From: a phage | Direction: 5' to 3' (one strand) | DNA length: 64,000 bases | NCBI GenBank assembly: GCA_017864995.1 | Contig: GCA_017864995.1_4097.1 | The notes under the pieces: generated by a model | Databases searched by the model: none | What the model was told of the DNA's origin: nothing | The model's input: the letters and a program-made list of their open reading frames with translations, nothing else | Translations under genes and position numbers: made by a program | Shown: piece after piece, positions 6,290 through 26,152 of the stretch | Position numbering within the stretch: the stretch's first letter is position 1 | Layout of the letters: the number at the start of each line of letters is the position of its first letter

Positions 6290-8230
6290 TAGACAGGGGA
6301 AGCTCCGCAGGGAAAGCATTGGACAGGCTTTAACATATGTTATATATGTTAAAATTCAGCCTGGACAAATGCGATCACTAGGATTCTCCCCAGGCTAAAC
6401 CCCGTAATCATATGTAGTCATAAGTAATCATATATAAACATTTATATGAGCACCGTAGAATCACAGAATGATTATATATGATTCAGTACTGATTATTATA
6501 GACAAGATTACTCAAGAATGCTAGGGAAGGATTCAGTACTGCCCCAAAAGTATTCAGTACTGAAGGTGTCGATATGCCACTAAGTAGGCAGAGGAAGTCT
6601 GCCGTACTTTGTAGTTTCCAAGCTCCTTTTCCAATTTGCAAATTACATCAAATGTAATCAAAAGTAATCACGCAATGATTAGTACTGAATTATTACTTTC
6701 ACCTTAATTACAATTACCCTTTTACCCTTCGGGGTAAAATTCAATTACCCCTTGAGGCTCCAGCAAAAAGTTGGTTAGTACTCCATCCTAAATCTCGATC
6801 CTAAAAATTTTGGAGTACCTATGAAATAAAAGTTGGATCTTCGAAAGTTGAAATTTACGTTGGGACGTTTATGATTTGTGGGATATAATGATGTTTGTAG
6901 TCGGGTAGTTCTCAAGAATATCAGTACTGAAAGATGAAAGAAAGTTATTGACTTTATGATTCAGTACTGTATAATGTTCTACATAGGGTGATGAGTTGCT
7001 GCGAACAATTCATTTACTCTACCTCCTGTCGTGAGACAGTACAGAAAAGATAGTTCCTCCTGTGGTGGTGGTACATCTTTTTGAACCTCATATGAAAATC
7101 GTAATAACAGTACTGATATTAACAGAATGGTGTCAGTACTGATTTTAATCTAAAGCATTATGCCACCAGCTTGTGCTGGTGGATTCCCTCTAACAGTATT
7201 CAGTACTACATGATGGTCTTCATCCTCCTAGGGTAACATAGTGAGGGCTATGATGGCAGTACTGAATACTCCCTTTCAAAAGATAGATCTATGGTATAGT
7301 ACTGACGGATTTTGGGTGTAGTTACCCTGGATGGATTTTGGACGTAGATATGTCTAGCCCTCCAGAAGTCTGGAAGTAAAGATGGCTATCCATCTAGACG
7401 GCTAAACGGCTAGATTTCTGGATGGCTGGATGGCTAGACGTTTGGACGGCTAAACGGCTAGATGGTTACACGTCTGGAAGTATAGACGGCTAAATCAAAA
7501 TTTTATTTTGTTTTTTCCAATAGTTCCCCTACCGCGTGGGGATAGTTTCCCCGCAGTATCTGGTGTTAGATTTTTCTGAATCTGGAATCATTATCTTATA
7601 AACTGGGGGCAATGTCAACGACCTGGACGGATATTTTTAAAAATTTTTTCAGTACTGAATTTTGGGCGTAACTATGCACCCGGTGGGCTTGAGTCTTTCT
7701 CGACTTGATGGAACTATTATACAGTACTGAAAAAATAAAGCAATACCCTGGAAGCAAAAAAGTTTTAATTAATTTGCTTGCTATCCTGGGCCGGACTATG
7801 GTACTATATTTCAGTACTGAGAAAGTGCGTTTACCTGCTAGGGTGCGGGAGTGTATCCTTTTTTTATATCTTGAATTTTGGGCGTAATTCCGCACCCTCT
7901 GGGGTTTCCGCTTTCTCGCGTCTATGTAGTAATTATACGCTTTTTCAGGATCAAGTCAATACCTAAAAACAAAATAATTGAAAATAATTTAACGCGTTTA
8001 AACTGCCCGTAACGCCCTGGAATGATTGGAATGGTGCAAATGTATAGCTTAGGTGTACTAATGCGTTAGAATGCGTCTGAGGCCGTTTTACGGGGTATAG
8101 GGATGATTTAGTGGATTGATTCAGTACTGAATAATAGTACTACTATATAGAAAGATAGTTCCCCTGGATGGTTGCAGTACTGAATGATAGTTTCCCTATA
8201 TAGAAAGAAAACTATTTTAAAAGTATTTGT
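6290..8230. other. ~2 kb non-coding hub with dense palindromes and repeats
   Basis: no RBS-supported ORF; many CAGTACTG palindromes; hairpins incl. TTTTACCC-ttcg-GGGTAAAA at 6720-6739; track ORFs here rejected. Confidence 0.5.
7360..7500. repeat. iteron-like direct repeats (GGCTA core)
   Basis: about 8 copies of r-GA-y-GGCTA-r incl. ACGGCTAAACGGCTAGAT x2 and GTCTGGAAGTA-A/T-AGA-y-GGCTA x2. Confidence 0.5.
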
Positions 8231-8239
8231 AGAAAGTAC

Positions 8240-8267
8240 TTGCACCGTACTGATAAAAGCGTATAAT
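8240..8267 (+). promoter_or_regulatory. class I promoter (TTGCAC-16-TATAAT, then GTTTTACATC)
   Basis: near-consensus hexamers; same cassette recurs upstream of many genes. Confidence 0.6.
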
Positions 8268-8281
8268 GTTTTACATCGAGA

Positions 8282-8298
8282 GCGGGAACTCTTCCCGC
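8282..8298 (+). promoter_or_regulatory. 5'-UTR hairpin GCGGGAA-ctc-TTCCCGC
   Basis: perfect 7-bp inverted repeat ~15 nt after -10; no U-run; RBS follows. Confidence 0.5.
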
Positions 8299-8322
8299 TA
8301 CACTTTAAGAGAGATTAAAACG

Positions 8323-8685
8323 ATGGCAACTCAAATCACCAAAATTATTGCTAACCTGGTTAACTTCCGCGACGAGATGAAAGATCTTCCGGCGGTAACG
8401 GTTAAAACTCACATTGACGCATACCGCGAACTGATTAAAATGCTGCCGCTTAAGCGTGAACAATACGCCGCTACCGTGATGCTTGATGCGATGATCCATA
8501 AGATGATCTCCCATGATTTAACGATGGTTTATCAGTACATGGGCGAAAATTTCGCGGTGTGTAGTACGCCAGTACCAGGGATGGCAACAACTGAGGAATT
8601 GCACGGTTTAAATTTAAAACAAGATGCATGGGATAATATGCCTCGTTTCCTGGTATGGGCTGACAGTGGCAAAATTTACAAATAA
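8323..8685 (+). CDS. hypothetical protein (120 aa)
   Basis: start MATQITK after RBS TAAGAGAG (track start 8266 lies in hairpin). Confidence 0.6.
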   Translation: MATQITKIIANLVNFRDEMKDLPAVTVKTHIDAYRELIKMLPLKREQYAATVMLDAMIHKMISHDLTMVYQYMGENFAVCSTPVPGMATTEELHGLNLKQDAWDNMPRFLVWADSGKIYK

Positions 8686-8699
8686 GTTTAATAAAGTAC

Positions 8700-8727
8700 T
8701 TGCAAACTATGTTTAAAAGCGTATAAT
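8700..8727 (+). promoter_or_regulatory. class I promoter (TTGCAA-16-TATAAT)
   Basis: followed by hairpin GGGGAA-tag-TTCCCC at 8742-8756. Confidence 0.6.
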
Positions 8728-8779
8728 GTTTTACATCAGGTGGGGAATAGTTCCCCACTATAATTAAGAGATTAATTGT

Positions 8780-9013
8780 ATGAGTACTATTTTAACTGTT
8801 TCTCAATCCGTTGCACTGACTGACCTATTAAACGCTTTAAGCCGTTGCACTGAGGTTGGCTTGTTTGATGCGGTTGACGTTGCACCGGACGTTATTAATC
8901 ATTTTTGTGATGCGATGGAAGAATGTAAGGAAGATGATAGCCGTATGATGGCGGTCGCCTTTGAGGAAGTACAGCCAGGTGAGATCAAAGGTTTACCAGT
9001 ACTGAAAAAATAG
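8780..9013 (+). CDS. hypothetical protein (77 aa)
   Basis: MSTILTVSQ; RBS AAGAG; Cys/acidic-rich. Confidence 0.6.
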   Translation: MSTILTVSQSVALTDLLNALSRCTEVGLFDAVDVAPDVINHFCDAMEECKEDDSRMMAVAFEEVQPGEIKGLPVLKK

Positions 9014-9016
9014 TAC

Positions 9017-9044
9017 TTGCAAACTATGTTTAAAGGCGTATAAT
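9017..9044 (+). promoter_or_regulatory. class I promoter (TTGCAA-16-TATAAT)
   Basis: followed by hairpin GGGGAA-tag-TTCCCC at 9059-9073. Confidence 0.6.
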
Positions 9045-9095
9045 GTTTTACATCAGGTGGGGAATAGTTCCCCACTATATAAGAGGATTAAAAAA

Positions 9096-9335
9096 ATGGC
9101 TAAATCAAAAATGTTCTTAGGTCACAAAAACAAAACTCATTGGAATGTAAGCCTTTGGATTAATAACGATGAGGGATTGTATCGGTTGGCCCTGGATTTT
9201 ATTAACGATAACACTAATCGCAATGATGCGGCCCGTCATATGATGTTATTTTTAGAACAGACTGGACAAGATAAAACACCGGACGGATTCAAATATAGCA
9301 CTACTGCGATCCGTGCGGCGATGGTTGGAATGTAA
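9096..9335 (+). CDS. hypothetical protein, paralog of 11133-11372
   Basis: MAKSKMFLGHKNKTHWNVSLWINN...TPDGFKYSTTAIRAAMVGM shared with 11133 gene. Confidence 0.6.
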   Translation: MAKSKMFLGHKNKTHWNVSLWINNDEGLYRLALDFINDNTNRNDAARHMMLFLEQTGQDKTPDGFKYSTTAIRAAMVGM

Positions 9336-9349
9336 TAGAATTTATTTAA

Positions 9350-9383
9350 AGTACTATCATTTTTTGCGATAGTACTTTATAAT
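9350..9383 (+). promoter_or_regulatory. class II promoter (AGTACT...AGTACT-tt-TATAAT)
   Basis: two AGTACT hexamers 21 bp apart, second abutting TATAAT; weak -35. Confidence 0.4.
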
Positions 9384-9420
9384 AGTGTTTTATTCATACA
9401 CCAACGATAAGGGCAACAGC

Positions 9421-9687
9421 ATGAATATTAAGTATTTTGCGACGCGTGAACAAGCTCGGATCGCCGCACGCCAGGACGGGGCAACGTTTAAAGATATGGG
9501 CGTACAATCGGAACGTGGTAAACGTTGGGCCATTGTAAAGCGTAGTACCGCCAGATCATTACAGTACTGGTTAGCGGCCTTAAAAAGTCCCGATAGTGTA
9601 TCGCGTCGAGTGGTAGAAATAAAGCTCGACCGAAAGGGCAACCGCGTGACCGTGTACCGTACTAAAAAGATTGCAGTACTTGAATAA
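9421..9687 (+). CDS. hypothetical protein, paralog of 21258-21653
   Basis: MNIKYFATREQARIAARQDGATFKDMG...RKGNRVTVYRTKK shared with 21258 gene. Confidence 0.6.
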   Translation: MNIKYFATREQARIAARQDGATFKDMGVQSERGKRWAIVKRSTARSLQYWLAALKSPDSVSRRVVEIKLDRKGNRVTVYRTKKIAVLE

Positions 9688-9694
9688 AAAGTAC

Positions 9695-9722
9695 TTGCAA
9701 ACTATGTTTAAAGGCGTATAAT
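9695..9722 (+). promoter_or_regulatory. class I promoter (TTGCAA-16-TATAAT)
   Basis: followed by hairpin GCGGGAA-ctc-TTCCCGC at 9737-9753. Confidence 0.6.
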
Positions 9723-9774
9723 GTTTTACATCGAGAGCGGGAACTCTTCCCGCCTATAACCTGGAGTAATAAAA

Positions 9775-10005
9775 ATGACTAATATGTATATGACTGAAGT
9801 TAAAACCGTAAAAGATACTACCACGAATAAAACTACTTACTTACAGCGGATCTGTGGTGTATGGCAACGTATCAGCAAATCAAAGTACTTTAAATTAACA
9901 TCATATGCAAATCGTTCGGATTCATTCAGTACTGAAATAAAAGGTAATAAAGTACACCAATACGGCACTTATTATTATTATAGCCTGGACGCGATTGCAG
10001 TATAA
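9775..10005 (+). CDS. hypothetical protein (76 aa)
   Basis: MTNMYMTEVK; RBS CTGGAG. Confidence 0.55.
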   Translation: MTNMYMTEVKTVKDTTTNKTTYLQRICGVWQRISKSKYFKLTSYANRSDSFSTEIKGNKVHQYGTYYYYSLDAIAV

Positions 10006-10252
10006 GCAGTTTACAAATCTTTACAATTGCCGGTATTGACTTATTTTGTCAGTACTGGCATAATGTATTCATTGGCAGATAAGCCGTAGCCCATAGGGTG
10101 CGGGAGTGTATCTATAGCAAAATTAGTTTAGTATAGTTACAATTGTGCACCCGGTGGGTTAGCTGTTGTCATGGGGTATATTATGCCAGTACTTGATAAT
10201 GCTGTCAATACTTTTTTACTATTCAGTACTGAAAACTATTTTTAAAAAGTAC

Positions 10253-10280
10253 TTGCAAACTATGTTTAAAGGCGTATAAT
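10253..10280 (+). promoter_or_regulatory. class I promoter (TTGCAA-16-TATAAT)
   Basis: drives conserved leader element 10291-10369. Confidence 0.5.
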
Positions 10281-10290
10281 GTTTTACATC

Positions 10291-10369
10291 AGGACGGGGA
10301 ACGAAATAAGTAACTTCCCGTTAAGTAGCCCAGGAGTAAGGCACACGAAAAACTCCCCTGATAAAATAG
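10291..10369 (+). ncRNA. candidate structured leader/sRNA element (copy 1)
   Basis: AGGACGGGGAACGAAATAAGTAAC..CCCGTTAAGTAG..CAGGAGTAAG..ACGAAAAACTCCCCTG; near-identical copy at 20066-20143. Confidence 0.3.
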
Positions 10370-10370
10370 T

Positions 10371-10398
10371 TTGACAATAGAAAGTAAAAGCGTATAAT
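10371..10398 (+). promoter_or_regulatory. promoter TTGACA-16-TATAAT
   Basis: second promoter immediately upstream of 10431 gene. Confidence 0.5.
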
Positions 10399-10430
10399 AC
10401 TTACATCAACTACTGAATGAGGGTTACAAA

Positions 10431-11042
10431 ATGAAAACTATCACTACTACTACTTTTGTTATGGCTTTTTCTGAACTGAACGCAGAACAAAAAACGGCGG
10501 CTATCGAACTGGTTCGGGATCGTGAGCGTTCATGTGAGGATAATTTCTTTGCTGAGGGCGTTATCGAGTACTATAAAGAAACAGTACTACCAGAATACGG
10601 CATAGATGAAGCTGAATTGCAATACAGTGGTTTTTGGTCGCAAGGTGACGGTGCATCAATCAGTACTGACCACGTTGACGCAGTGAAGTTTTTACGCAAG
10701 GTAAGAGCATTAACTAAGTATCGCTCAATCCGTCACTTGCTGAATGAAGATGATTTGGCGATGAGTGTAGAACGTTCACACTCTCGCTACGCACACGAAA
10801 ACACGGTAAGCGGGTACATTGAATCGGCTTACACTGATTTAACCGCAAAACAAGAAACGTTAGTTAATGAGCTTGAGGAACTACTCACTGATACTATTCG
10901 TGAATTGTCCCGCAAGTTGTACCGTGATTTAGAGAATGCATATGAGGATCAATTCACTACTGAAAACATTACGGCACTGATTGAGGGTAACGAATATCAA
11001 TTCAATGTTATTGATGGCGTAGTGGAATCAATCGAATATTAA
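10431..11042 (+). CDS. hypothetical acidic protein (203 aa)
   Basis: MKTITTTTFVMAF; largest gene in this block; function unknown. Confidence 0.6.
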   Translation: MKTITTTTFVMAFSELNAEQKTAAIELVRDRERSCEDNFFAEGVIEYYKETVLPEYGIDEAELQYSGFWSQGDGASISTDHVDAVKFLRKVRALTKYRSIRHLLNEDDLAMSVERSHSRYAHENTVSGYIESAYTDLTAKQETLVNELEELLTDTIRELSRKLYRDLENAYEDQFTTENITALIEGNEYQFNVIDGVVESIEY

Positions 11043-11054
11043 TTTAAAAAGTAC

Positions 11055-11082
11055 TTGCAAACTAAGTTTAAAAGCGTATAAT
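11055..11082 (+). promoter_or_regulatory. class I promoter (TTGCAA-16-TATAAT)
   Basis: followed by hairpin GGCGGGGA..TCCCCGC. Confidence 0.6.
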
Positions 11083-11132
11083 ACTTTACATCAAGGCGGG
11101 GAGTGGTTCCCCGCTCAAACGAGGATTTAAAA

Positions 11133-11372
11133 ATGGCTAGTACTAAAACTTACAACGGACACAAAAACAAAACTCATTGGAATGTAAGCCTTTGGATTAA
11201 TAACGGTGAGTCATTGTATCGGCTTGCTCAAAGTTGCATCGCACAAAGTAGAACTAAAGATATTGCTGCGGAATGTATGTACCGCAGATTAAAAGCCAAC
11301 GGTACTACTACAACGCCGGACGGCTTTAAGTATAGCACTACTGCGATCCGTGCTGCAATGGTTGGAATGTAA
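11133..11372 (+). CDS. hypothetical protein, paralog of 9096-9335
   Basis: MASTKTYNGHKNKTHWNVSLWINN...; start at RBS-supported internal Met. Confidence 0.6.
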   Translation: MASTKTYNGHKNKTHWNVSLWINNGESLYRLAQSCIAQSRTKDIAAECMYRRLKANGTTTTPDGFKYSTTAIRAAMVGM

Positions 11373-11392
11373 TATTCAGTACTGAGATAATG

Positions 11393-11415
11393 GCGGGTAA
11401 TAGTTCCCGCCTTTA
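11393..11415 (+). terminator. intergenic hairpin GGCGGG-N7-CCCGCC (weak terminator or processing site)
   Basis: same hairpin type as the 5'-UTR hairpins but no promoter; weak T-run. Confidence 0.3.
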
Positions 11416-11429
11416 CTGAGGGTTATCTA

Positions 11430-11690
11430 ATGAGTAAAGTAATTAGCTATACAGCACTAAGCAAGACATTATCTATTAGCCAGTGCACCGATGGTTATTG
11501 GCTATTTGATGAAACGCGTGGCATGAATTTAGCCATGCGTGCAAAAACTGCTGAGGCGGCGTATCTTGAAGCATTGGAATACTACCAGGAACGTTTAAAG
11601 GAAGTAGAAGAAGATTATAAAAGCCTCAAAGCGAAAGTAGATCATTTCGTCGGTCAATTCATCGAGGAAGACGACGACAAACAATATTGA
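11430..11690 (+). CDS. hypothetical protein (86 aa)
   Basis: MSKVISYTALSK; RBS GAGGG. Confidence 0.55.
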   Translation: MSKVISYTALSKTLSISQCTDGYWLFDETRGMNLAMRAKTAEAAYLEALEYYQERLKEVEEDYKSLKAKVDHFVGQFIEEDDDKQY

Positions 11691-11776
11691 AAAAGTACTT
11701 GCAATTAGTTTTCAGTACTGTATAATGGTTTACATCAAAGGGAGAAATGGTTCTCCCTGGTAATGAGGAAAATACA

Positions 11777-11998
11777 ATGGCTAATATCACTACTCTTTCC
11801 CAACTGGAAGCACTGGTTAAATCTATGCGGGAACATGCCGACAAAATCGGCGTACAAGATCCAGCCGTTTGCTTCTGCGACGAATTGAATGATGATACCC
11901 TGGTAATAGCAGAAGTCCAGGACGTTTCTAACTATTCCTCGCGTTACACTGGCGGCGTAGCAAATAAAGGCGACTTCTGTTTATACCTTACAAAATAA
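11777..11998 (+). CDS. hypothetical protein (73 aa)
   Basis: start MANITTLSQ after class I promoter plus hairpin GGGAGAA..TTCTCCC. Confidence 0.55.
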   Translation: MANITTLSQLEALVKSMREHADKIGVQDPAVCFCDELNDDTLVIAEVQDVSNYSSRYTGGVANKGDFCLYLTK

Positions 11999-12002
11999 CA
12001 AC

Positions 12003-12035
12003 GCGGGGAGATAATAACTCCCCGTTACTTTTTCA
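12003..12035 (+). terminator. rho-independent terminator
   Basis: GGGGAG-ataataa-CTCCCC followed by TTACTTTTT. Confidence 0.5.
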
Positions 12036-12240
12036 GTACTGAATCATTTAATAGACGGATCTCGGCACCCGGTGGGTTAGTGACTGTTTCGTCTTGATGT
12101 AGTAATTATGCCAGTACTGGATGCACTTGTCAACAACTATTTTTCAAATACTTTTTATTAAAATACTTGCAATTAGTTTTTAAACGCGTATAATGTTTTG
12201 CATAGGGGGAGCGGTTCCCCTGGTAACTAAGGATAATCAA

Positions 12241-12540
12241 ATGAAAATTACAATCATCGCCCTGGCTTTATCTGTTTCCTCTTTCGCTGTTAATGCGTCA
12301 TTAGATGTAAGTAGTGAAAAATTCATTCAGTGCACTGTTGCAATGACCGATGAAAGTACTGGCGAGATTGTATTAAAGGATCTGGAGATTCAGCCGGAAG
12401 CATTTAAAAACGGCCCGTTCCATGAAGAAGACGAAAACGGTAGCACGACAATTTATTATGATGCCAGTACTAAACGCGGTTCGGTCACTGTCATGGATAC
12501 TGAGAAAGTAACTCATACCGGCGTTATTAATTGCCGTTGA
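12241..12540 (+). CDS. small secreted/periplasmic protein (signal peptide)
   Basis: start MKITIIALALSVSSFAVNA-SLD, typical signal peptide; class I promoter plus hairpin upstream. Confidence 0.55.
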   Translation: MKITIIALALSVSSFAVNASLDVSSEKFIQCTVAMTDESTGEIVLKDLEIQPEAFKNGPFHEEDENGSTTIYYDASTKRGSVTVMDTEKVTHTGVINCR

Positions 12541-12561
12541 TAGATACTACGGGGTAACATC

Positions 12562-12792
12562 ATGACTAAGCGAATTGTTTTACTTAACGAAAGCAGTACT
12601 ACACAACTACTTAACGCCGTGCATTATGATATTGAAACGAGCGTTAATCTTATCAGTACTGTAGTACTGTTGGACACTGGAAAGGTCGCCAATGATAAAG
12701 CGATTGCAGGTATATTAACGGATCTTGAGCCTGGTCGCAGTGCACCAATAACGTTAAATTGTAAAGTGTTTAATATTTTACTCACTGATTAA
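12562..12792 (+). CDS. hypothetical protein (76 aa)
   Basis: MTKRIVLLNESS; followed by strong terminator. Confidence 0.5.
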   Translation: MTKRIVLLNESSTTQLLNAVHYDIETSVNLISTVVLLDTGKVANDKAIAGILTDLEPGRSAPITLNCKVFNILLTD

Positions 12793-12798
12793 GTACAT

Positions 12799-12826
12799 AG
12801 CCCACCTGGTGGGCTTTTTTGTTTTT
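12799..12826 (+). terminator. rho-independent terminator
   Basis: AGCCCACC-t-GGTGGGCT then TTTTTTGTTTTT. Confidence 0.7.
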
Positions 12827-12874
12827 GTAGTATCGTAGTACTGAGATACTTTGAAAATAGTTTTAAGAAAGTAG

Positions 12875-12902
12875 TTGACATTACCGCAGAAAAGCGTAGA
12901 AT
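12875..12902 (+). promoter_or_regulatory. promoter TTGACA-16-TAGAAT
   Basis: followed by ~110-nt leader related to the 10291/20066 elements. Confidence 0.45.
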
Positions 12903-13031
12903 GTATTACATCAAGACGGGGAGCACTAAGTAGACCGCCAGTAAGTCGAACGAAAAACTGGACACGTCGAGAAAACTTTGATACACTAATAAACGTAAAC
13001 GTAAACTTAACTTTAATTGAGGATTTATAAA

Positions 13032-13514
13032 ATGGCTAATGTAAAATCATTCATCAAAGCACTGGTAGCAAATGAAACTAACGTCGCGGCTGAGATCCTG
13101 GCTGAACTGGATAACGATACCATGAAAGCGGTACGCAATAATTTTAACATCGCGTACAGTACTGCGAAAGAACTACAAGCAAATAAAGCGGCAGAAATTG
13201 AAGCGGCAAAGGCGGCCCGTGAAGCAGAACTAAAAGCAACAATTGAAAGTATCCAGGCGGCAGTAGTTGGATTGGATCTGGAAGTAGTTACAGAGATGGC
13301 ACAAAAAGCCCTGGCGGTTAAGTATGGGGAAGACAAGCCAGAAGTAAAAGCCAAAAAATGGATTCAGGAACGCGTAGCGGTAGTACTGGACAACGGGGAA
13401 GAATATCTGATTCCGGTGCGTGGTAACTGCATTGCGGTAGTACTGGACGCGATTAACTCCAGTGGTATGACTCGCGAGGAATGGATCGAAGCTCATCGCA
13501 AAGTTGAAGCATAA
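13032..13514 (+). CDS. hypothetical Ala/Glu/Lys-rich coiled-coil-like protein
   Basis: MANVKSFIKAL...AAEIEAAKAAREAELKATIESIQAA; RBS GAGGA. Confidence 0.6.
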   Translation: MANVKSFIKALVANETNVAAEILAELDNDTMKAVRNNFNIAYSTAKELQANKAAEIEAAKAAREAELKATIESIQAAVVGLDLEVVTEMAQKALAVKYGEDKPEVKAKKWIQERVAVVLDNGEEYLIPVRGNCIAVVLDAINSSGMTREEWIEAHRKVEA

Positions 13515-19185: not shown

Positions 19186-19270
19186 AAAAGTACTGGACAA
19201 TAGATTATAGTACTGTATAATAGTTTACATGAAGGGGAGAAATGATTCTCCCCACTAAGAGGAAAGAAAA

Positions 19271-19483
19271 ATGCAAGGTCAACTAATCGTTCGTAAATGG
19301 TCTGATACTAACGAAAAACCGTGGGATGTACAATACATCGCCCCCAATGGTGAATCCAGATATCAACCAGGTGTAACGCATAGTACTGAGCAATTCGCCG
19401 CCGCTCATCGCGAACGTCTGTTACAATCAATGCAGCAAGGTTCCGGTGAAAAATTCATTCAGGATCATTGGCTGAAAGATTAA
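19271..19483 (+). CDS. hypothetical protein (70 aa)
   Basis: MQGQLIVRKW; promoter plus hairpin upstream. Confidence 0.55.
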   Translation: MQGQLIVRKWSDTNEKPWDVQYIAPNGESRYQPGVTHSTEQFAAAHRERLLQSMQQGSGEKFIQDHWLKD

Positions 19484-19569
19484 AAAGTACTTGCACAGTA
19501 CTGAATAAAGTGTATAATGTTTTATATCGGAAGGGGAATAGTTCCCCTCCGAACAAAGAGGAAAGTATA

Positions 19570-19743
19570 ATGGTCCAGGTAGAATTAACAGTACTGAAAG
19601 ATCTGTTTTATCGGATTGGTACTACTGGCGAATATCCGAAGGGTGATAATGCAAAACTTTACGTATCACTCGACTTATGGCAACGCGAACAATTAGCAAC
19701 AGCCTGGCGTAAAGGCAAAGCAGATAGCGAGGTGAAAGCATGA
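19570..19743 (+). CDS. hypothetical protein (57 aa)
   Basis: start MVQVELTVLK after RBS AAAGAGGAAAG; track start 19468 lies in promoter. Confidence 0.5.
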   Translation: MVQVELTVLKDLFYRIGTTGEYPKGDNAKLYVSLDLWQREQLATAWRKGKADSEVKA

Positions 19744-19889
19744 AAGAATTCTTATTTGAAGTAGTGTTTCAAGGTGTCGGCAATAACCAACTGATTCGAT
19801 CAAGTGGTTATAATGTTAACCAGGCATGGAATAACATTAAACAAATGTACCCGAACGCTATCACATATCGCAACCCGAAAGAAGTTTAA
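19740..19889 (+). CDS. hypothetical protein (49 aa)
   Basis: MKEFLFEVVFQGVGNN; ATGA overlap with upstream stop. Confidence 0.4.
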   Translation: MKEFLFEVVFQGVGNNQLIRSSGYNVNQAWNNIKQMYPNAITYRNPKEV

Positions 19890-20204
19890 AAAATAATTGA
19901 AAAAGGGATTGACTCCGGTCAGTCCCTTTGCTATTATATACGCATAGAAACAAATCAGCCCACCGGGTGCATAAATGTATCTATTGTTTGCTGGTGGCTA
20001 GTACTGAAAACTATTTTTAAAAAGTACTTGCATTGTACTTATAATCAAGTATAATGTTTTACATCAGGACGGGGAACGAAATAAGTAACCCCGTTAAGTA
20101 GTCCAGGAGTAAGACATACGAAAAACTCCCCTGATAAAATAGTTTGACAATAGAAAGTAAACGAGTATAATACTTACATCAACCACTGATAAGGAAACAT
20201 AAAA

Positions 20205-20480
20205 ATGCGGATTCTACTGACAGCTAACGAAATCGAACAAGTACTGACTACTAACCTGGAAGACTGGAAACGTGAAGCAGATATCCAGGCGGTTCAATGG
20301 TTAAATGATAAGTTAACGCCGGATGACTTAAGCAAGATTGTAGATCCTCAATTCTACGAAGATATCCACGACACCGCGTTAAGCGTCGAGGATGTACTAG
20401 ATAAGCACTTTATTGATACTGATTTGCAGGTTTACGGTCGTAAAAACTTTATCACTATTCACGACATTTACAATAATTAA
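20205..20480 (+). CDS. hypothetical protein (91 aa)
   Basis: MRILLTANEIEQ; downstream of leader element copy 2 and a second promoter. Confidence 0.55.
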   Translation: MRILLTANEIEQVLTTNLEDWKREADIQAVQWLNDKLTPDDLSKIVDPQFYEDIHDTALSVEDVLDKHFIDTDLQVYGRKNFITIHDIYNN

Positions 20481-20567
20481 GTATTGACAAAGTATCTTAG
20501 TACTGTATAATAGTTTACATCGAGAGGGGGGAATGGTTCCCCTCCTAACTAAAAGAGAGAAATAAAA

Positions 20568-20750
20568 ATGGCTAAGTGCACTATCTGCAAGAAAGAAATA
20601 GTATTAGTTCCAAGTGCCCGTGAACGTGCCGCTCGGTTCGGTGGCAAAGCGTCAGACTATACAAAAATGTTTACTACCCATACAGCTTGCCAGGTAGCAA
20701 AACGTTCACAAGAAAGCGTAGAATTAATGCGTAAACTTTCCAAAAAATAA
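20568..20750 (+). CDS. small Cys-containing protein (possible zinc ribbon)
   Basis: MAKCTICKKE...HTAC; promoter plus hairpin upstream. Confidence 0.5.
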   Translation: MAKCTICKKEIVLVPSARERAARFGGKASDYTKMFTTHTACQVAKRSQESVELMRKLSKK

Positions 20751-20838
20751 GTATTGACAAAGTATCTTAGTACTGTATAATAGTTTACATCAAGTGAGGG
20801 GAAACGGTTCCCCTCCTAACAAAGAGAGAGAAATAAAA

Positions 20839-21162
20839 ATGGCTATGATCCTTGCCCAGAAAGTAGAATTGAAAATTGTAACCTCCTTTGACATTAACGT
20901 TAATCGGTGGACTGATTCACACGGCAATACTTACCACTCTTGCTACGTGTCTGCGTTAATTGGCGACCGCTGGGAAGACCTGGGACACGAAACCTTTACA
21001 TACGGTTACGGTACACAAGGCGAATACACGGGCTTGGAGATCATTAAAGAAACCGTTATAGGTTTCAACCCGAAAGAAAAAGTTATTCACCGCATCGAGG
21101 AAGAGATCAACAAAGAAATAACAGTTCGCTACCACGATGTAAAACGTAAGAAAGACATGTAA
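20839..21162 (+). CDS. hypothetical protein, paralog of 14346-14669
   Basis: MAMILAQKVEL..NRWTDSHGNTYHSC..FTYGYG..VKRKKDM. Confidence 0.6.
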   Translation: MAMILAQKVELKIVTSFDINVNRWTDSHGNTYHSCYVSALIGDRWEDLGHETFTYGYGTQGEYTGLEIIKETVIGFNPKEKVIHRIEEEINKEITVRYHDVKRKKDM

Positions 21163-21257
21163 TAGAATCCATTTAAAGTACTATTTGACATTGCCCAGAT
21201 AGTACTTTATAATAGACTCTAACTTGTAGTACTAACTCAACCAATAGGATGTATACC

Positions 21258-21653
21258 ATGATTACTAAATTCTACGCTACCCGTGAAGCTGCCCGTATTG
21301 TTGCACGCGAGGAAGGAGCAGCATTTAAAGACATGGGAACGACAGCACCGAAAGGTCAACGCTGGGCCGTACAGTTCAAAGAAATCTCTGATATTGTGAA
21401 TTCACCTGAGCCAGTACTAACAGCAGCAGAACTAAAACGAGCGGATATGCTGGCGGCAATACTTGACGCACAAGATGAGTTTATCGCTGATTCTGATATC
21501 AAAGTACAGGTAAACCACACCGCATGGACTCACGCGGATCACCTGGCAAACCTTAAGCGTCCAAGTGAACTGATTCGCAACCAGAAAGAGATCCGACATG
21601 ATCGTAAGGGTAATCGTGTAACAGTATACAGTAAACGCCGCCAGGTTATCTAA
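21258..21653 (+). CDS. hypothetical protein, paralog of 9421-9687
   Basis: MITKFYATREAARIVAREEGAAFKDMG...RKGNRVTVYSKRR. Confidence 0.6.
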   Translation: MITKFYATREAARIVAREEGAAFKDMGTTAPKGQRWAVQFKEISDIVNSPEPVLTAAELKRADMLAAILDAQDEFIADSDIKVQVNHTAWTHADHLANLKRPSELIRNQKEIRHDRKGNRVTVYSKRRQVI

Positions 21654-21675
21654 TAACTTGCAGTACTAACAACAC

Positions 21676-21700
21676 GGCGGGATCAGTTCCCGCCTTTTTT
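21676..21700 (+). terminator. rho-independent terminator
   Basis: GGCGGG-atcagtt-CCCGCC then TTTTTT. Confidence 0.65.
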
Positions 21701-21714
21701 ATAGGACAAACAAA

Positions 21715-21969
21715 ATGATTAAGGTTCAACTATATAAAGATAACATCTTACGGGTACACTATAAAGCACCGAAGAGAATCATCACAAAGGCCGTACAGCT
21801 TGCTAATGAGTTTATTAATGGTAACCTATTACCTAGGAAGTTAAGCAACGGGAAACTGCGTGTAATCGACGTGGACACTAACAACAGGATAGTAATCGAG
21901 AACACAGGAAAGATAAACCTTTATGAGCATCAACAATACAATAAGAAAATAAAACTAATATCACGTTGA
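21715..21969 (+). CDS. hypothetical basic protein (84 aa)
   Basis: MIKVQLYKDN; RBS AGGA. Confidence 0.5.
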   Translation: MIKVQLYKDNILRVHYKAPKRIITKAVQLANEFINGNLLPRKLSNGKLRVIDVDTNNRIVIENTGKINLYEHQQYNKKIKLISR

Positions 21970-22022
21970 CAGTACTCAATTGTTTTAGTACTATGTACAC
22001 ATACCAACACGGGAGAAACAAA

Positions 22023-22241
22023 ATGAAATTATCTAAAATCGAAAAGAAAACTATTGATGAAGCAGTTAAGCACGGTTATACCTTTCGTAATGATTCACAT
22101 TTTACCAATTTTCAACAAGGGTATCGTACTATTAAAAAACTAATTGACAAAGGTTTATTAGTTGAAGTCAATAACGGTAACGGTATCGAGTATCAACCAA
22201 CACAGGACGCATTTTATTTTAAGAAATATAATATTATCTAA
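22023..22241 (+). CDS. hypothetical protein (72 aa)
   Basis: start MKLSKIEKK; shares a duplicated ~60-nt promoter/leader with 22299 gene. Confidence 0.5.
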   Translation: MKLSKIEKKTIDEAVKHGYTFRNDSHFTNFQQGYRTIKKLIDKGLLVEVNNGNGIEYQPTQDAFYFKKYNII

Positions 22242-22298
22242 TTGACAGTACTCAAATGTTTTAGTACTATATGTACATACCAACACGGGGGAAACAAA

Positions 22299-22541
22299 AT
22301 GATTACTTTAGAAAAACGTATCAAAGAAACTACATCGCTGGTGGAACTGTTAACAGTACTCAAATGTAAAACAACACCATTCAGCACGCCGGACTTTATT
22401 AATATGGTTGATGTTAATGGTCGCTATCGTATCACGGTCGAACAAGGAGCGGCGAAAGTATTCAGTACTAAAAACACGAAGGAAGTGATCCACGCCGTTA
22501 ATGTTAAAAAAGTAGTTGCCATTGATAGTAAAGTACTGTAA
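22299..22541 (+). CDS. hypothetical protein (80 aa)
   Basis: start MITLEKRIKE; promoter/leader 22243-22301 near-identical to 21966-22025. Confidence 0.5.
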   Translation: MITLEKRIKETTSLVELLTVLKCKTTPFSTPDFINMVDVNGRYRITVEQGAAKVFSTKNTKEVIHAVNVKKVVAIDSKVL

Positions 22542-22572
22542 TATAGTTTCATTAACTCAAGGAGAACATGCA

Positions 22573-23157
22573 ATGCGTAATTATACAAAATTCATCCGTA
22601 CACTGTCAGAAATGGAAACCAACAAAGAGATCCTTTCAGCTTGTCGGTTAGCTGACCTGGAGATCATCGGTGCTGGTTCTTCCCGTATAGTTTTCGCTTT
22701 AAATGATCGGTTAGTGATTAAGGTCGCGAATTGTGATGCGGGTGTCGAACAAAATGAAACTGAATGTAAGGTATGGAATTTTTTAGACTATGACCGCCCT
22801 CAGTTGAAACAGTACTTTGCAAAGGTGCATATGCATTTATGCGATCCTGATAATATGTTTATCGTTATGGATCGGTTGAGTACTGCAAGCAAAGGCAGTG
22901 TGAAGCACGTAAACGCGTGCAATGAATTAAAGTACAATATTAAACGTAATGCAATCGAACGCCAGCACCGCTTTGCTGATGCACTACAACACGTTGATGA
23001 TACATTATCAACACTAACGATAAGAGATATCAGAAAACAGAATATCGGCCAGGATCGTAATGGACTTATTAAAGTACTTGATTACGGTTTAACCAGCAAT
23101 ATCTGGAATCAGTACTATAAAAAGCGTGATGTGGCAGCAAGTAAAGTAACACGATAA
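22573..23157 (+). CDS. putative protein-kinase-like protein
   Basis: IGAGSSRIVF (Gly-rich loop), VIKVA (Lys), IRDIRKQNIG (HRD-like loop), LDYG (DFG-like); RBS AAGGAGAA. Confidence 0.4.
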   Translation: MRNYTKFIRTLSEMETNKEILSACRLADLEIIGAGSSRIVFALNDRLVIKVANCDAGVEQNETECKVWNFLDYDRPQLKQYFAKVHMHLCDPDNMFIVMDRLSTASKGSVKHVNACNELKYNIKRNAIERQHRFADALQHVDDTLSTLTIRDIRKQNIGQDRNGLIKVLDYGLTSNIWNQYYKKRDVAASKVTR

Positions 23158-23378
23158 AAAAGATTAAAAAAGGGATTGACTTCGGTCAGTCCCTTTGCTA
23201 TTATATATTCATTGAGAGATAACTCACTGACCCATAGGGTGCGGAAGTGTATCTATTATATAAGTATTCAGTACTGAAAACTATTTTTAAAAAAGTACTT
23301 GCATTGTACTTAGAATCAAGTATAATGTTTTATATCGAGAGGGGGAAATGGTTCTCCCTGGCAATAAGGAATAAAATC

Positions 23379-23600
23379 ATGACTACAATGACTTGCATTT
23401 ACGCTTCCAATCGTCTGAATGATGCGGCCTTTAATGTTGATTCAGAATATCAATGTTATCGGGATGAAAATAAAAAAGTTTTTGTAGTTGATAATAATGG
23501 TTTCCATATTGAATTGCAATCCGGCTTCACTGGCGTTGATGGTAAATCAGTATGGGGCGTACAGGATGATAAAGGTACATATCATTTTAAACGTAATTAA
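23379..23600 (+). CDS. hypothetical protein (73 aa)
   Basis: start MTTMTCIYASN after promoter plus hairpin. Confidence 0.5.
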   Translation: MTTMTCIYASNRLNDAAFNVDSEYQCYRDENKKVFVVDNNGFHIELQSGFTGVDGKSVWGVQDDKGTYHFKRN

Positions 23601-23683
23601 GTATTGACAAAGTATCTTAGTACTGTATAATAGTTTACATCAAGGGGAGAATAGTTCTCCCCAATACAATAAGGAATAAAATC

Positions 23684-24091
23684 ATGTCTACTACTACTAA
23701 TCTCGCTCGGAACATCACTAACGATAAAAATCATGCTGCAATGGTCGCTGGTTACATTGAAGCTATGCAATTCAGTACTGTACATAATGATAACGGCGAT
23801 TACCTGGAAGATTATGAGTTATCTGATGAAGCACGTCAAGCGGCGGTGATTGCATGTTCTCGCTTCATTGAGAAACACGGTAATGATCTGGAAGTAGTTC
23901 GCGGTATGTTTATTGATTACGGTTATGAGCAAGCTGGTCATGATCTGTTCCTTACCCGCGAAGGTCACGGAACTGGTTTTTGGGATCGTGGTTTAGGTCA
24001 CTATGGCGATGTATTCACGAAGTACTGCGAAGAAATCAACGTTTGCGATCCCTATGTAGGCGATGATAACTTAATCTATATGGGCGAATAA
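23684..24091 (+). CDS. hypothetical acidic protein (135 aa)
   Basis: MSTTTNLARN; promoter plus hairpin GGGGAGAA..TTCTCCCC upstream. Confidence 0.6.
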   Translation: MSTTTNLARNITNDKNHAAMVAGYIEAMQFSTVHNDNGDYLEDYELSDEARQAAVIACSRFIEKHGNDLEVVRGMFIDYGYEQAGHDLFLTREGHGTGFWDRGLGHYGDVFTKYCEEINVCDPYVGDDNLIYMGE

Positions 24092-24178
24092 AAGTATTTG
24101 ACAAAGTATATCAGTACTGTATAATAGTTTACATCAAGGGGAGAACTATTCTCCCCACCAATAAAAGGAAACAAAATT

Positions 24179-24451
24179 ATGTCCAGCTACTCCGCTACTA
24201 TGATCATTAAAGATATGAACGGTAATCCTACTTCTGCTGGTGGATCATTTGGAAATATTAACTTAGATGGGCGGTTATCCATGCAATCAGCCATCGATGC
24301 AGCGAAAGAAGTTTTTAAGAATGAATGTACTGTTAGTAAGCTGGATTATATGGGATTCGCTATCGAGAAAACTACTCGTTTTGTGAACTACAAAAATCCA
24401 CTGATGATTGATACTAACCTGAAAGCTAACGAAGTGGGGTACTTATTATGA
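24179..24451 (+). CDS. hypothetical protein (90 aa)
   Basis: MSSYSATMIIKD; promoter plus hairpin upstream. Confidence 0.55.
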   Translation: MSSYSATMIIKDMNGNPTSAGGSFGNINLDGRLSMQSAIDAAKEVFKNECTVSKLDYMGFAIEKTTRFVNYKNPLMIDTNLKANEVGYLL

Positions 24452-24639
24452 CAGTAGAAGAAGTTAAAAAAGTACTGGCAGTACTACGATATCATAATCA
24501 TTGCAAGGTGAAGAATGATCCTGATTATCTTGATTCATCCCTGGAGGAAGACACCTTGAACGCTATAAGCCATATGCAGACATTAGCAAAGCGTATGACT
24601 GAAAAGAACATGCCGGACTATATCGGAAATAAAATTTAA
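24448..24639 (+). CDS. hypothetical protein (63 aa)
   Basis: MTVEEVKKVLAV; ATGA overlap with upstream stop. Confidence 0.5.
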   Translation: MTVEEVKKVLAVLRYHNHCKVKNDPDYLDSSLEEDTLNAISHMQTLAKRMTEKNMPDYIGNKI

Positions 24640-24726
24640 AAAGTACTTGCATTGTAGTTAGATTAACGTATAATGTTTTATATCGAGAGGGGGAAATGGT
24701 TTCCCCTCAAGTCCAGGAGATACACC

Positions 24727-24990
24727 ATGAACACTATCGAAATCACTATCAATGCACACGTATACGACAACGTAGTACTGCAAACTACTATGACCGCCAA
24801 TGATACCAGTACTTTGCGGAATACTGTTATTAGTGCCGTATGTGCCGCTATCGGTGATGTCGCCCTGGAAAATGCAAAACACGTAAACGATGGTTTCACT
24901 ATGTGCAAACGTGATAACGCAAAACATATCATCGTGGAAGGTTACGGCGGTGTAGAATTTAATGTTTATATGAAAAAAGTACTTGCATAA
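24727..24990 (+). CDS. hypothetical protein (87 aa)
   Basis: start MNTIEITINAH after RBS CAGGAGA; track start 24673 lies in promoter. Confidence 0.55.
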   Translation: MNTIEITINAHVYDNVVLQTTMTANDTSTLRNTVISAVCAAIGDVALENAKHVNDGFTMCKRDNAKHIIVEGYGGVEFNVYMKKVLA

Positions 24991-25057
24991 TAACTAAAAC
25001 AAAGTATAATGTTTTGCATAGGGGGAGATATCCTCCCCCACTAAAAGGAGTAATAAA

Positions 25058-25282
25058 ATGGCTAACTTTGATGAACTGATGCGGGAAGTAGCTAACCTGG
25101 CAGAAGAGAAGAAATCATTCGATTCTATCTATAACACCGCTCACCGTGATTCAGTACTGGCATGTAACCAGGAACAAAAAGATGAACTAATCGCCACCTA
25201 TCATGAAGCATGGAAGTACTACCGACAATGGGAGAAAGAAGAAAGTGAGTCTACCATTGACGGCCTCAATAATCTAATCTAA
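25058..25282 (+). CDS. hypothetical protein (74 aa)
   Basis: MANFDELMREVA; promoter plus hairpin GGGGGAGATATCCTCCCCC upstream. Confidence 0.55.
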   Translation: MANFDELMREVANLAEEKKSFDSIYNTAHRDSVLACNQEQKDELIATYHEAWKYYRQWEKEESESTIDGLNNLI

Positions 25283-25358
25283 AAGTTTTATTTCAGTACT
25301 ATTGACATAGCTTGATAGTACTGATGTAATAACTTTACTAACTACAAGGGGAAACATA

Positions 25359-25616
25359 ATGGATCAGTTCACACAATATCGGGTAAATCCTCAAGCTATG
25401 GCCTACGTAGAAGACCATAAAACGTTACCAGTACTGCAACCAGTTAAAGGCCATATCTATCGTGCAATGTCGTGGTGTACGGCCCAGGATGGCTATAAAA
25501 CCGTAGCCGTTGGTATGTATTGCGGTAATGGTGAATGGTTTGATCCAAATAATCCGGTAGCCATTGACAGTACTGAAAAAATGAAATGGGCCGACTACAT
25601 CGAAGATATTTCATAA
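25359..25616 (+). CDS. hypothetical protein (85 aa)
   Basis: MDQFTQYRVNPQ; class II promoter upstream. Confidence 0.55.
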   Translation: MDQFTQYRVNPQAMAYVEDHKTLPVLQPVKGHIYRAMSWCTAQDGYKTVAVGMYCGNGEWFDPNNPVAIDSTEKMKWADYIEDIS

Positions 25617-25706
25617 AAACTATTTGACAGTACTAACCAGTAATGTATAATGTTTTACATAGAGCGGGGGAATAGTTCTCCCGCCAATAGTTTGGAGTAA
25701 AACATT

Positions 25707-25907
25707 ATGTCTATCGCTATCGCCCTGGTTGAAGTACTGAAAGAAGCTAAAGCCAACCAGATCGACGTAAAGATCCAGGAACTACAAAACGGCTTAATCG
25801 GCTGTACTTGTACCGCTGGTGGAGCGGCAGACTATCGAGAACACGAATCACTCGAATCACTGGTTCGGTATCTTACCATGATCGTTGATGATTGGAGAAT
25901 CATCTAA
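25707..25907 (+). CDS. hypothetical protein (66 aa)
   Basis: MSIAIALVEVLK; promoter plus hairpin GCGGGGGAA..TTCTCCCGC upstream. Confidence 0.55.
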   Translation: MSIAIALVEVLKEAKANQIDVKIQELQNGLIGCTCTAGGAADYREHESLESLVRYLTMIVDDWRII

Positions 25908-26152
25908 CAAAAAAGAATAAAAAAAGGGATTGACTCCGGTCAGTCCCTTTGCTATTATATACGCATAGACAAAAACTAGCCCACAGGGTGCATAGGTGTA
26001 TCCAAAATATATAGTTAATAACGGTGAGTAACTATCTGCTGGTGGAGTGAAAACTATTAATAAAAAAGTATTGACAAAGTATATCAGTACTGCGATAATG
26101 TATCTCGTAGGGCGGCAATGGTGCGACGGCCCACAAAGTTAGGAGATTCACC

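Follow-up and report, generated by a model that had tools for sequence, protein, structure and literature searches.

The window contains one copy of a direct terminal repeat

We analysed a 64-kb window of phage DNA (64,000 nucleotides, contig GCA_017864995.1_4097.1) that carries a dense set of the octamer GCTGGTGG, given in the literature consulted as Chi, the RecBCD recognition sequence, of enteric bacteria. A preliminary description of the window had reported a loose cluster of this octamer over ~19 kb. The clustering is real, but its organising unit proved to be a direct terminal repeat (DTR) of ~20.8 kb that lies at both ends of the virion DNA. Chi density in this 21-kb repeat is 20 to 80 times that expected by chance.

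Megablast against phage records identified the source of the window as an Asteriusvirus, a PBECO4/121Q-like, RaK2-like jumbo myovirus of Escherichia coli with a genome of 350-380 kb. Among the 226 matching phage records, 183 are named Escherichia, and the best match, phage vB_Ec-M-J, showed 95% identity across 83% of the queried 20 kb. For the window phage itself, a host was assigned on the basis of these relatives. The earlier hint at an enterobacterial host was right, the nearest relatives being E. coli phages, and the equation of the octamer with enterobacterial Chi was likewise borne out.

The vB_Ec-M-J record annotates a 'Direct Terminal Repeats' feature at 1-21525 (21,525 bp). Its position 1 corresponds to window position 6583, and the final 25 nt of its DTR end at window position 27395. 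Positions 1-6444 of the window match the right unique end of vB_Ec-M-J, directly before the right repeat copy, and 27396 onward match its left unique start, directly after the left repeat copy; the window is thus a junction of the right unique end, one repeat copy and the left unique start. Such a junction is expected from a collapsed assembly or a concatemer junction. The DTR ends of the window phage were placed by homology to experimentally mapped DTRs. That of fEgEco12 (20,993 bp) was mapped by PhageTerm and restriction digests (PMC13070987), and that of Sharanji (20,668 bp) by PhageTerm (PMC11895373); the fEgEco12 record starts at the same point as the window DTR.

The G+C content (GC) of the repeat is 0.36-0.41, compared with 0.29-0.34 in the rest of the window. 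No tRNA genes were found in the window, so the GC-richer block is not a tRNA cluster. The repeat holds ~55 small open reading frames (ORFs) on the + strand, each with a sigma-70-like promoter of its own; it is ~66% coding and has ~45 strong promoters of this type on the + strand, which is the layout of an early host-takeover region.

Chi octamers of the window lie inside the repeat

An exact search of the whole window found GCTGGTGG ten times on the + strand (starts at 7175, 13644, 17629, 18140, 19090, 19990, 22337, 24236, 25815 and 26038) and twice on the - strand, where it reads CCACCAGC on the + strand (7163 and 13582). The nine + and two - positions listed previously are all correct; the tenth + site, 22337, had been overlooked. 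All 12 octamers fall inside the DTR and none in the remaining 43 kb. No copies had been noticed earlier in the tandem arrays, and the exact search confirmed that these arrays contain none. The repeat and its sites are as follows.

6583..27395, unstranded: DTR, one collapsed copy of ~20.8 kb, collinear with the vB_Ec-M-J DTR at 94-96% identity
7163..7182, unstranded: palindromic Chi pair CCACCAGC-ttgt-GCTGGTGG; perfect 8-bp stem, 4-nt loop, free energy (dG) -9.8, z-score (z) -4.2
13582..13589, - strand: intergenic bottom-strand Chi at 7.0 kb from the left DTR boundary; follows the terminator at 13536-13557
13644..13651, + strand: top-strand Chi, intergenic; distal partner of 13582 in an inverted repeat
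17629..17636, + strand: top-strand Chi, intergenic; in the 3' arm of the terminator-type hairpin AGCCCACTGGttaaCGCTGGTGGGCT, z -4.4
18140..18147, + strand: top-strand Chi upstream of a DksA-like gene; perhaps in a doubtful 48-aa ORF, frame Ala-Gly-Gly
19090..19097, + strand: top-strand Chi, coding; GCT GGT GGA (Ala-Gly-Gly), ORF 18997-19185
19990..19997, + strand: top-strand Chi, intergenic; created within one copy of a repeated intergenic cassette
22337..22344, + strand: top-strand Chi, coding; frame xxG CTG GTG Gxx (Leu-Val), ORF 22299-22541
24236..24243, + strand: top-strand Chi, coding; Ala-Gly-Gly frame, ORF 24179-24451
25815..25822, + strand: top-strand Chi, coding; Ala-Gly-Gly frame, ORF 25707-25907
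26038..26045, + strand: intergenic top-strand Chi, the right-most of all; 1,350 bp separate it from the right DTR boundary

The 12 observed copies compare with a mean of 0.48 and a maximum of 3 in 100 dinucleotide-preserving shuffles of the window. The Markov comparison that had been proposed as a check placed the exact octamer far above expectation within the 20.8-kb block (0.12-0.53 for the + strand and 0.05-0.14 for the - strand, orders 0-4). Among the 168 octamers of the same composition, Chi ranks first in the window DTR: it has 10 copies, the runner-up 4, and the others on average 0.25. When all octamers in the DTR were ranked by z-score, Chi came 13th, and the octamers that could be placed above it belong to a repeated promoter (TTGCA-N16-GTATAATGTTTTACATCA) or to terminator-type stems, TAGCCCAC among them. 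One-mismatch variants were not enriched (+11 sites only, with 13.6 expected for zero or one mismatch together), which limits the excess to the exact octamer. The Chi enrichment is real, statistically robust and stronger than first noted.

The unique region stands at a codon-driven baseline

The whole-genome count that had also been proposed was made in the complete sequence of vB_Ec-M-J, whose two repeat copies are identical. It confirmed the enrichment in the DTR, but not in the unique region. Each 21.5-kb repeat copy contains 9 top-strand and 2 bottom-strand Chi, and the 335.5-kb unique region 14 and 9, respectively (binomial P = 3e-6 for the repeat/unique split). The unique-region density of 1 per 14.6 kb (23 in 335.5 kb) is below that of E. 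coli. Its 14 top-strand sites represent only a ~two-fold excess over the 5.6-8.3 expected from Markov orders 3-6, and Chi ranks second there among the 168 same-composition octamers. The sites are mostly on the sense strand: 10 of the 14 top-strand copies read GCT GGT GGN (Ala-Gly-Gly) in the deposited annotation, 22 of 23 lie in coding sequence under our ORF model, and GCTGGTGG is the encoding of Ala-Gly-Gly in 16 of 23 cases, a striking share when set against single-codon usage. Genome-wide selection for Chi was rejected on the dicodon context, GCT-GGT accounting for 40% of Ala-Gly pairs and GGT for 89% before Gly; the unique-region excess is codon-driven.

The repeat differs from this. Non-coding Chi density is 1.24 per kb in the DTR and 0.05 per kb in the unique region, coding Chi density 0.25 versus 0.07 per kb, and GCT and GGT codons are less favoured in the DTR than in the unique region.

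The densest group of Chi outside the repeat of vB_Ec-M-J comprises six top-strand sites in 22 kb (213674-235745) and spans the genes for DNA polymerase, terminase, SSB, UvsX/UvsY, helicase and primase. This group is probably codon-driven, because most of its sites are in-frame Ala-Gly-Gly.

Individual sites differ in context and origin

The palindromic pair at 7163..7182 lies 580-600 bp from the left DTR boundary, in a gene-free terminal region of ~1.7 kb ahead of the first gene. It presents Chi in both orientations and is kept in vB_Ec-M-J and in the related phage E9.1. The same Chi palindrome, with the loop ttaa, occurs 484-503 bp from the left end of the DTR of fENko-Kae01, a Klebsiella phage treated below. 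A scan of viral contigs for the palindrome CCACCAGCNNNNGCTGGTGG returned 46 loci, nearly all in unrelated contigs of 5-90 kb and one in a contig of 348,532 bp, and was uninformative. Both bottom-strand copies had been described as hairpin partners. This holds for 7163/7175 with its perfect 8-bp stem; 13582/13644 is a distant inverted repeat (z -2.2), for which 'hairpin' is generous because the predicted fold encloses more than 50 nt between the Chi arms. The orientation of 13582 is that active for a rightward-moving RecBCD.

The gene-free start of the DTR (6583-8260) has no convincing ORF and holds many copies of CAGTACTG besides the Chi palindrome. At 7393-7492 it contains a degenerate tandem array with GGCTAGACGG-like units of 8/16/24 bp. 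As a non-coding leader, this stretch might serve packaging or DNA entry.

Eleven of the 12 window sites are kept in vB_Ec-M-J and E9.1. In E9.1, the first ~20 kb contain 9+/2- Chi and the 20 kb that follow contain none. At ~95% identity within the genus, such conservation is by itself weak evidence. The exception, 18140, is lineage-specific; vB_Ec-M-J reads GCTGATGG at this place, and the segment is absent in E9.1. The hairpin around 17629 has a counterpart in fENko-Kae01, where the Chi at 19354 is surrounded by the hairpin sequence ggccactggttaacGCTGGTGGcc, similar to AGCCCACTGGttaaCGCTGGTGGGCT of the window.

The sites at 19990 and 26038 belong to one family of intergenic cassettes and occupy different positions within the cassette. 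The copy with 19990 reads GTTTGCTGGTGGCT where two of the four aligned copies read ATATA--AGTATT, and 26038 stands just upstream of a promoter whose -35 element (TTGACA) starts at 26071. In the four aligned copies, Chi arose by local changes in one, was inserted elsewhere in a second and is lacking in two, which indicates independent gains and not copying. Duplication of Chi-bearing segments was ruled out on this ground. Altogether, 4-5 of the 12 Chi lie inside coding frames and 7 of 12 are non-coding, and no extended consensus was found around the window octamers.

The Chi array recurs in the terminal repeats of four genera

A 194-aa protein-kinase-like gene lies inside the DTR (window 22573-23157). 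It is kept at 27-39% identity in RaK2-like phages of Escherichia, Klebsiella, Salmonella, Yersinia and Erwinia, and it is inside the repeat wherever the repeat has been mapped, which makes it suitable for locating the repeat in genomes that lack annotation. We used this DTR-borne kinase as the anchor for the DTRs of other genera; the first post-DTR gene of fENko-Kae01 had reached only 7 records. Three further repeats, each mapped independently, were compared with that of the window and provide stronger evidence than conservation within the genus.

fENko-Kae01, Klebsiella: repeat of 19,736 bp (PhageTerm); Chi 12+/2-; flank 1+/1- in the next 30 kb
CBB, Pectobacterium (Mimasvirus): repeat of 22,456 bp; Chi 7+/2-; flank 0+/2- in the preceding 27.5 kb
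Muenster, Klebsiella (Alcyoneusvirus): repeat of 20,030 bp (PhageTerm); Chi 7+/1-; flank 0 in the next 25 kb

fENko-Kae01 has 28.6% average nucleotide identity to fEgEco12 (PMC13070987). The CBB repeat was mapped by read depth, with pulsed-field gel electrophoresis for genome size (PMC5259590). In all three repeats Chi is again the first of the 168 composition-matched octamers (copies/mean: fENko-Kae01 12/0.13, CBB 7/0.14, Muenster 7/0.08). When the window, fENko-Kae01, CBB and Muenster were pooled, with E9.1 left out, the 83 kb of repeat contained 43 Chi and the 126 kb of unique DNA next to it 4 (P = 1e-13). The pooled repeat sites comprise 36 on the top strand and 7 on the bottom strand, at a density of 1 per 1.7-2.5 kb across the four genera. 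Site flanks mostly differ between genera and positions are mostly non-homologous, with two exceptions, the left-terminal palindrome and one terminator hairpin, both recurring in fENko-Kae01. The number and geometry of the array are kept across four genera while single sites turn over. The Xanthomonas jumbo phage XacN1, taken as a negative control, showed no special Chi enrichment, with 4+/2- in 50 kb of its 66-kb repeat (GC 52.8%), where Chi is fourth, with many ties, among same-composition octamers. The pattern argues that Chi is selected specifically in the terminal repeat of enterobacterial RaK2-like phages.

In the four genera, GC of repeat versus flanks is 0.386 vs 0.354, 0.373 vs 0.339, 0.378 vs 0.352 and 0.358 vs 0.272.

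That the octamers have no function and are a by-product of composition, codon usage, segment duplication or captured host DNA is hardly credible, and this explanation is already largely refuted. It could draw on the higher GC of the DTR relative to its flanks, on the preferred GCT and GGT codons contained in Chi, together with the codon-driven ~2-fold excess of the unique region, and on the resemblance to Chi of terminator arms such as GGTGGGCT. Composition, however, is shared by the 168 matched octamers, of which Chi is the first at 30-90 times their mean. Codon usage is countered by the non-coding location of 7 of the 12 sites and by the weaker preference for GCT/GGT in the DTR, and duplication by the differing site flanks and by the two cassette copies that gained Chi at different places. 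As to captured host DNA, the DTR GC of 0.386 is far from the 50.8% of E. coli, and its Chi density is ~2.5 times that of E. coli. The pattern also recurs in four genera.

A phage or host protein, such as an early-transcription, packaging or DNA-entry factor, might also use the octamer as a binding or regulatory site, the identity with Chi being coincidental; we consider this improbable. Four Chi of fENko-Kae01 and one of CBB lie in promoter spacers, those of fENko-Kae01 just upstream of the -10 element; in the window, two Chi directly precede promoter blocks and three loci form part of inverted repeats, and other motifs are strongly over-represented in the DTR. These associations would favour such a site, but the octamer has no fixed place with respect to promoters, terminators and ORFs, 4-5 of 12 copies are in coding frames, and no extended consensus surrounds it. 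An arbitrary selected octamer would match the host Chi about once in 33,000, and all four host groups belong to the Enterobacterales, whose Chi is GCTGGTGG in the literature consulted. The Chi in promoter spacers of relatives may simply occupy free sequence space.

Chi orientation is skewed towards the end from which it can be read

RecBCD responds to a top-strand 5'-GCTGGTGG-3' when it comes from the right end (PMC12315714). The repeat lies at both virion DNA ends. A RecBCD that moves leftward through the right copy meets ten top-strand Chi, the first of them at 1,350 bp (26038); one that moves rightward through the left copy meets two bottom-strand Chi, at 580 bp (7163) and 7.0 kb. The distance from the right end to the first Chi in the active orientation is 0.4-1.4 kb in the four genera, and that from the left end is 0.5, 0.5, 3.5 and 6.5 kb. 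Both orientations are enriched in the DTR, and the informative part is their positional skew to opposite ends. In the four genera, + Chi have a mean relative DTR position of 0.63 and - Chi one of 0.27 (Mann-Whitney P = 0.0012), so that each orientation lies closer to the end at which RecBCD would have to enter to recognise it. In the window phage, the right end has five times as many such Chi as the left. With a per-site recognition probability of 0.3, taken as an illustrative value, ten sites would capture 97% of enzymes and two ~51%.

The same skew bears on the proposal that the octamers are hotspots for exchange between co-infecting relatives, kept for shuffling accessory early-gene cassettes. 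The DTR is indeed highly mosaic, 36-83% of it being shared at 93-97% identity among Asteriusviruses, and it consists of short promoter-gene-terminator cassettes in which intergenic blocks recur. RecBCD nevertheless needs a double-strand end, so its effect would still begin at the genome ends, and an orientation skew to opposite ends is predicted by end entry and not by cassette exchange. Selection for evolvability would moreover be weak compared with a direct growth benefit. We regard this proposal as very improbable.

A proposed role in rescuing the chromosome ends

The octamers are probably functional Chi sites selected in the long DTR of a virulent RaK2-like jumbo coliphage. From the sequence pattern we infer that RecBCD recognises the DTR sites in vivo and that the phage benefits. 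After injection, or at a later double-strand end, host RecBCD would load on the free genome end and unwind and degrade it inward. From the right end it would meet ten correctly oriented top-strand Chi, the first 1.35 kb in, and from the left end bottom-strand Chi 0.58 kb and 7.0 kb in. Chi recognition would turn RecBCD from destruction to the production of a 3' single-strand tail and the loading of RecA. Since every Chi is within the repeat, this tail would always be homologous to the other repeat copy, on the same or a sister molecule. Strand invasion could then rescue the end and yield circular, concatemeric or replication-priming forms, before the phage's own UvsX/UvsY/gp46-47-type proteins, whose genes are 190-226 kb distant, are synthesised. 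A side benefit might be less RecBCD-derived debris for spacer capture by clustered regularly interspaced short palindromic repeats (CRISPR) systems. The array points to a short post-injection phase of reliance on host RecBCD and RecA, in which the phage would either withstand RecBCD or exploit it for end joining.

A stronger version is possible, although we would not favour it. The ~20-kb repeats of RaK2-like jumbo phages of Enterobacterales would here act as a conserved 'RecBCD-capture array', RecBCD, the main host nuclease against linear DNA, being obligatory or strongly pro-viral and Chi-directed RecA loading within the repeat circularising or concatemerising the injected chromosome as a replication template. 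In a virulent phage with recombinases of its own, this would run contrary to the current rule that Rec-proficient phages avoid Chi.

The preliminary description had proposed that the enrichment protects linear phage DNA from RecBCD. A RecBCD-related role remains the best reading of the data, but protection is only half of what Chi does, and the confinement of Chi to the repeat fits RecA-mediated recombination between repeats at least as well. Pure shielding, in which the array only attenuates RecBCD at the ends and thereby limits CRISPR spacer capture, the early genes surviving until a putative phage inhibitor is made and the repeats not recombining, is unlikely in our view. Correctly oriented Chi near both ends, the promoter-dense early region formed by the DTR, and the availability of the phage's own recombinase set for later recombination would all agree with shielding. 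It fails, however, to explain why the enrichment stops at the DTR boundary instead of fading, and DNA survival after Chi in E. coli is coupled to RecA loading (bioRxiv 10.1101/2021.07.08.451572). We favour recombination over shielding because the enrichment is confined to the repeat and because of the precedent of phage P1, whose circularisation needs RecBCD/RecA. The two models overlap and are inseparable in silico.

A phage RecBCD inhibitor was also looked for, as had been suggested earlier, and no known family was found: the 53 DTR ORFs contain no Gam, Abc2, gp5.9 or end-protector family by PHROGs, and none is annotated in vB_Ec-M-J. The only named PHROGs matches among the DTR ORFs are a DksA-like family, an acetyltransferase and a small 'DNA ligase' family.

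Several points weigh against functional Chi sites serving RecBCD-dependent end rescue. vB_Ec-M-J is annotated with a UvsX-like recombinase, a UvsY mediator, SbcCD/gp46-47-like and DprA-like proteins and endonuclease VII (depositors' annotations; genes at 143-226 kb), and in surveys Rec-proficient lambdoid phages are mostly without Chi. The ~50 functionally uncharacterised DTR proteins could include a new RecBCD inhibitor, which would make Chi irrelevant. The location of several Chi of relatives in promoter spacers, and of some window Chi in hairpin arms, would allow another DNA-level role. The left end is covered by one or two Chi only, the nearest being 3.5-6.5 kb in for CBB and Muenster. Purines at +4 to +7 of the 3' flank boost Chi activity, in a modulating and not a required manner (PMC5041463), and A/G at these positions were not enriched (73 of 140, or 52%, versus a 55% strand background). 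The one-orientation enrichment described earlier was correct as to the excess; the 10:2 strand ratio, however, is not significant against the order-3 compositional expectation of ~75:25, both orientations being enriched. Strand bias was accordingly dropped as evidence, and the positional-skew test was used in its place. Finally, no published experiments with recBCD or recA hosts on RaK2-like phages were found in the literature.

Comparison with other Chi-bearing genomes

Phage P1 carries 50 Chi in 94.8 kb, densest beside pac in the future terminal redundancy of 5-10 kb, and these Chi have been proposed to drive RecBCD-dependent circularisation (bioRxiv 10.1101/2021.07.08.451572). The present repeat resembles P1 in that host Chi, in both orientations, is concentrated in the DNA that forms the virion terminal repeats, and in the proposed role of RecBCD/RecA recombination of the repeats in circularising injected DNA. 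P1 differs in being temperate, with headful packaging and variable ends, in needing host RecA/RecBCD for growth and in having Chi genome-wide at 1 per 1.9 kb, whereas the window lineage is a virulent myovirus of 350-380 kb with exact ~21-kb DTRs, UvsX-type genes of its own and Chi enriched in the DTR only.

In the lambdoid phage LLS, Chi is terminally clustered and RecBCD aids growth (Zheng et al. 2025, PMC12315714). Terminal clustering, a predominance of the orientation active from the right end, the rank of Chi as top octamer and the reading of the enrichment as selection to exploit host RecBCD are common to LLS and the window phage. The LLS class ('no Rec module - high Chi') is nevertheless defined by the absence of recombination genes and of a RecBCD inhibitor, while the jumbo phage relative is annotated with UvsX, UvsY, SbcCD-like and DprA-like genes. 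LLS has cohesive ends and no long repeat, so that its molecule offers no second repeat copy for Chi to target.

Phage T5 likewise has a long exact DTR with small early genes from host-type promoters (10.2 kb, with pre-early host-takeover genes), annotated in its record as the first DNA to enter the host cell. In T5 1-12000 we found two Chi in the DTR, both on the top strand and in its right part (8127 and 8689; 0.2 per kb). The whole-genome Chi density of T5 is near that of E. coli (bioRxiv 10.1101/2021.07.08.451572), so the DTR density, which is close to it, indicates no repeat-specific enrichment. T5 was set aside as a parallel case, two Chi being too few to interpret.

On the E. coli chromosome, Chi is over-represented and co-oriented so that RecBCD entering from a break stops and turns to repair. 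Chromosomal Chi has a density of 1 per 4.6 kb (PMC12315714) and is largely codon-linked, in contrast to the mostly non-coding Chi of the window DTR at 1 per 1.7 kb.

The authors of the fEgEco12 study propose circularisation via the repeats and do not mention Chi or RecBCD (PMC13070987). The DTR Chi array appears to be unreported in the literature searched, including full text. New relative to P1 and LLS are a virulent jumbo phage as carrier, enrichment restricted to the repeat, the presence of own recombinase genes and a conserved terminal Chi palindrome. The Chi-rich phages described so far are temperate or lambdoid and lack recombination genes of their own, following the rule 'no Rec module - high Chi'. 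If the reading proposed here is true, the array would offer a simple means of studying how the chromosomes of giant phages become established in their host and would predict a host-dependency factor, with recBCD, recA and Chi-recognition mutants expected to be poor hosts. Host-specific Chi density could then serve as a signature for locating terminal repeats and guessing the hosts of uncultivated jumbo phages, and it would become possible to examine whether CRISPR spacer capture is reduced by Chi at the ends of a phage genome.

Other features of the window

The hexamer AGTACT occurs 140 times in the repeat (6.7 per kb), including 37 copies of the palindrome CAGTACTG. There are 47 copies before and 94 after the repeat in the window and 841 in the unique 335 kb of vB_Ec-M-J, and the hexamer is equally dense in fENko-Kae01, CBB and Muenster. 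It is placed both in the block AAAAAGTACTTGCA upstream of -35 elements and free-standing as tCAGTACTGa. A hairpin with a 12-bp stem, AAAGGGATTGACTCCGGTCAGTCCCTTT, is present in four copies (window 16241-16268, 19902-19929, 23169-23196 and 25923-25950). It carries a TTGACT -35 hexamer in its 5' arm and is followed by GCTATTATAT, which is a TG-extended -10, and the unit looks like a combined terminator and promoter cassette.

Outside the repeat, a gene for an RCC1-like repeat protein (window 36-1202, - strand) closes the right unique arm. In vB_Ec-M-J, 14 paralogues annotated 'regulator of chromosome condensation' lie on the minus strand at 333206-350767, just before the right repeat, and CBB has kelch-like genes at the place matching this array. 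Directly after the repeat, the window has back-to-back paralogous ORFs of 64-90 aa (27493-30062), and a 356-bp unit is present in two copies at 80% identity (33435-34130); both represent small early genes amplified in tandem. Megablast-level similarity to part of the repeat region was also seen in 13 records named Campylobacter phage (host Campylobacter jejuni), which is unexpected for that host. A few Phapecoctavirus, Justusliebigvirus, Erwinia and Acinetobacter records share it.

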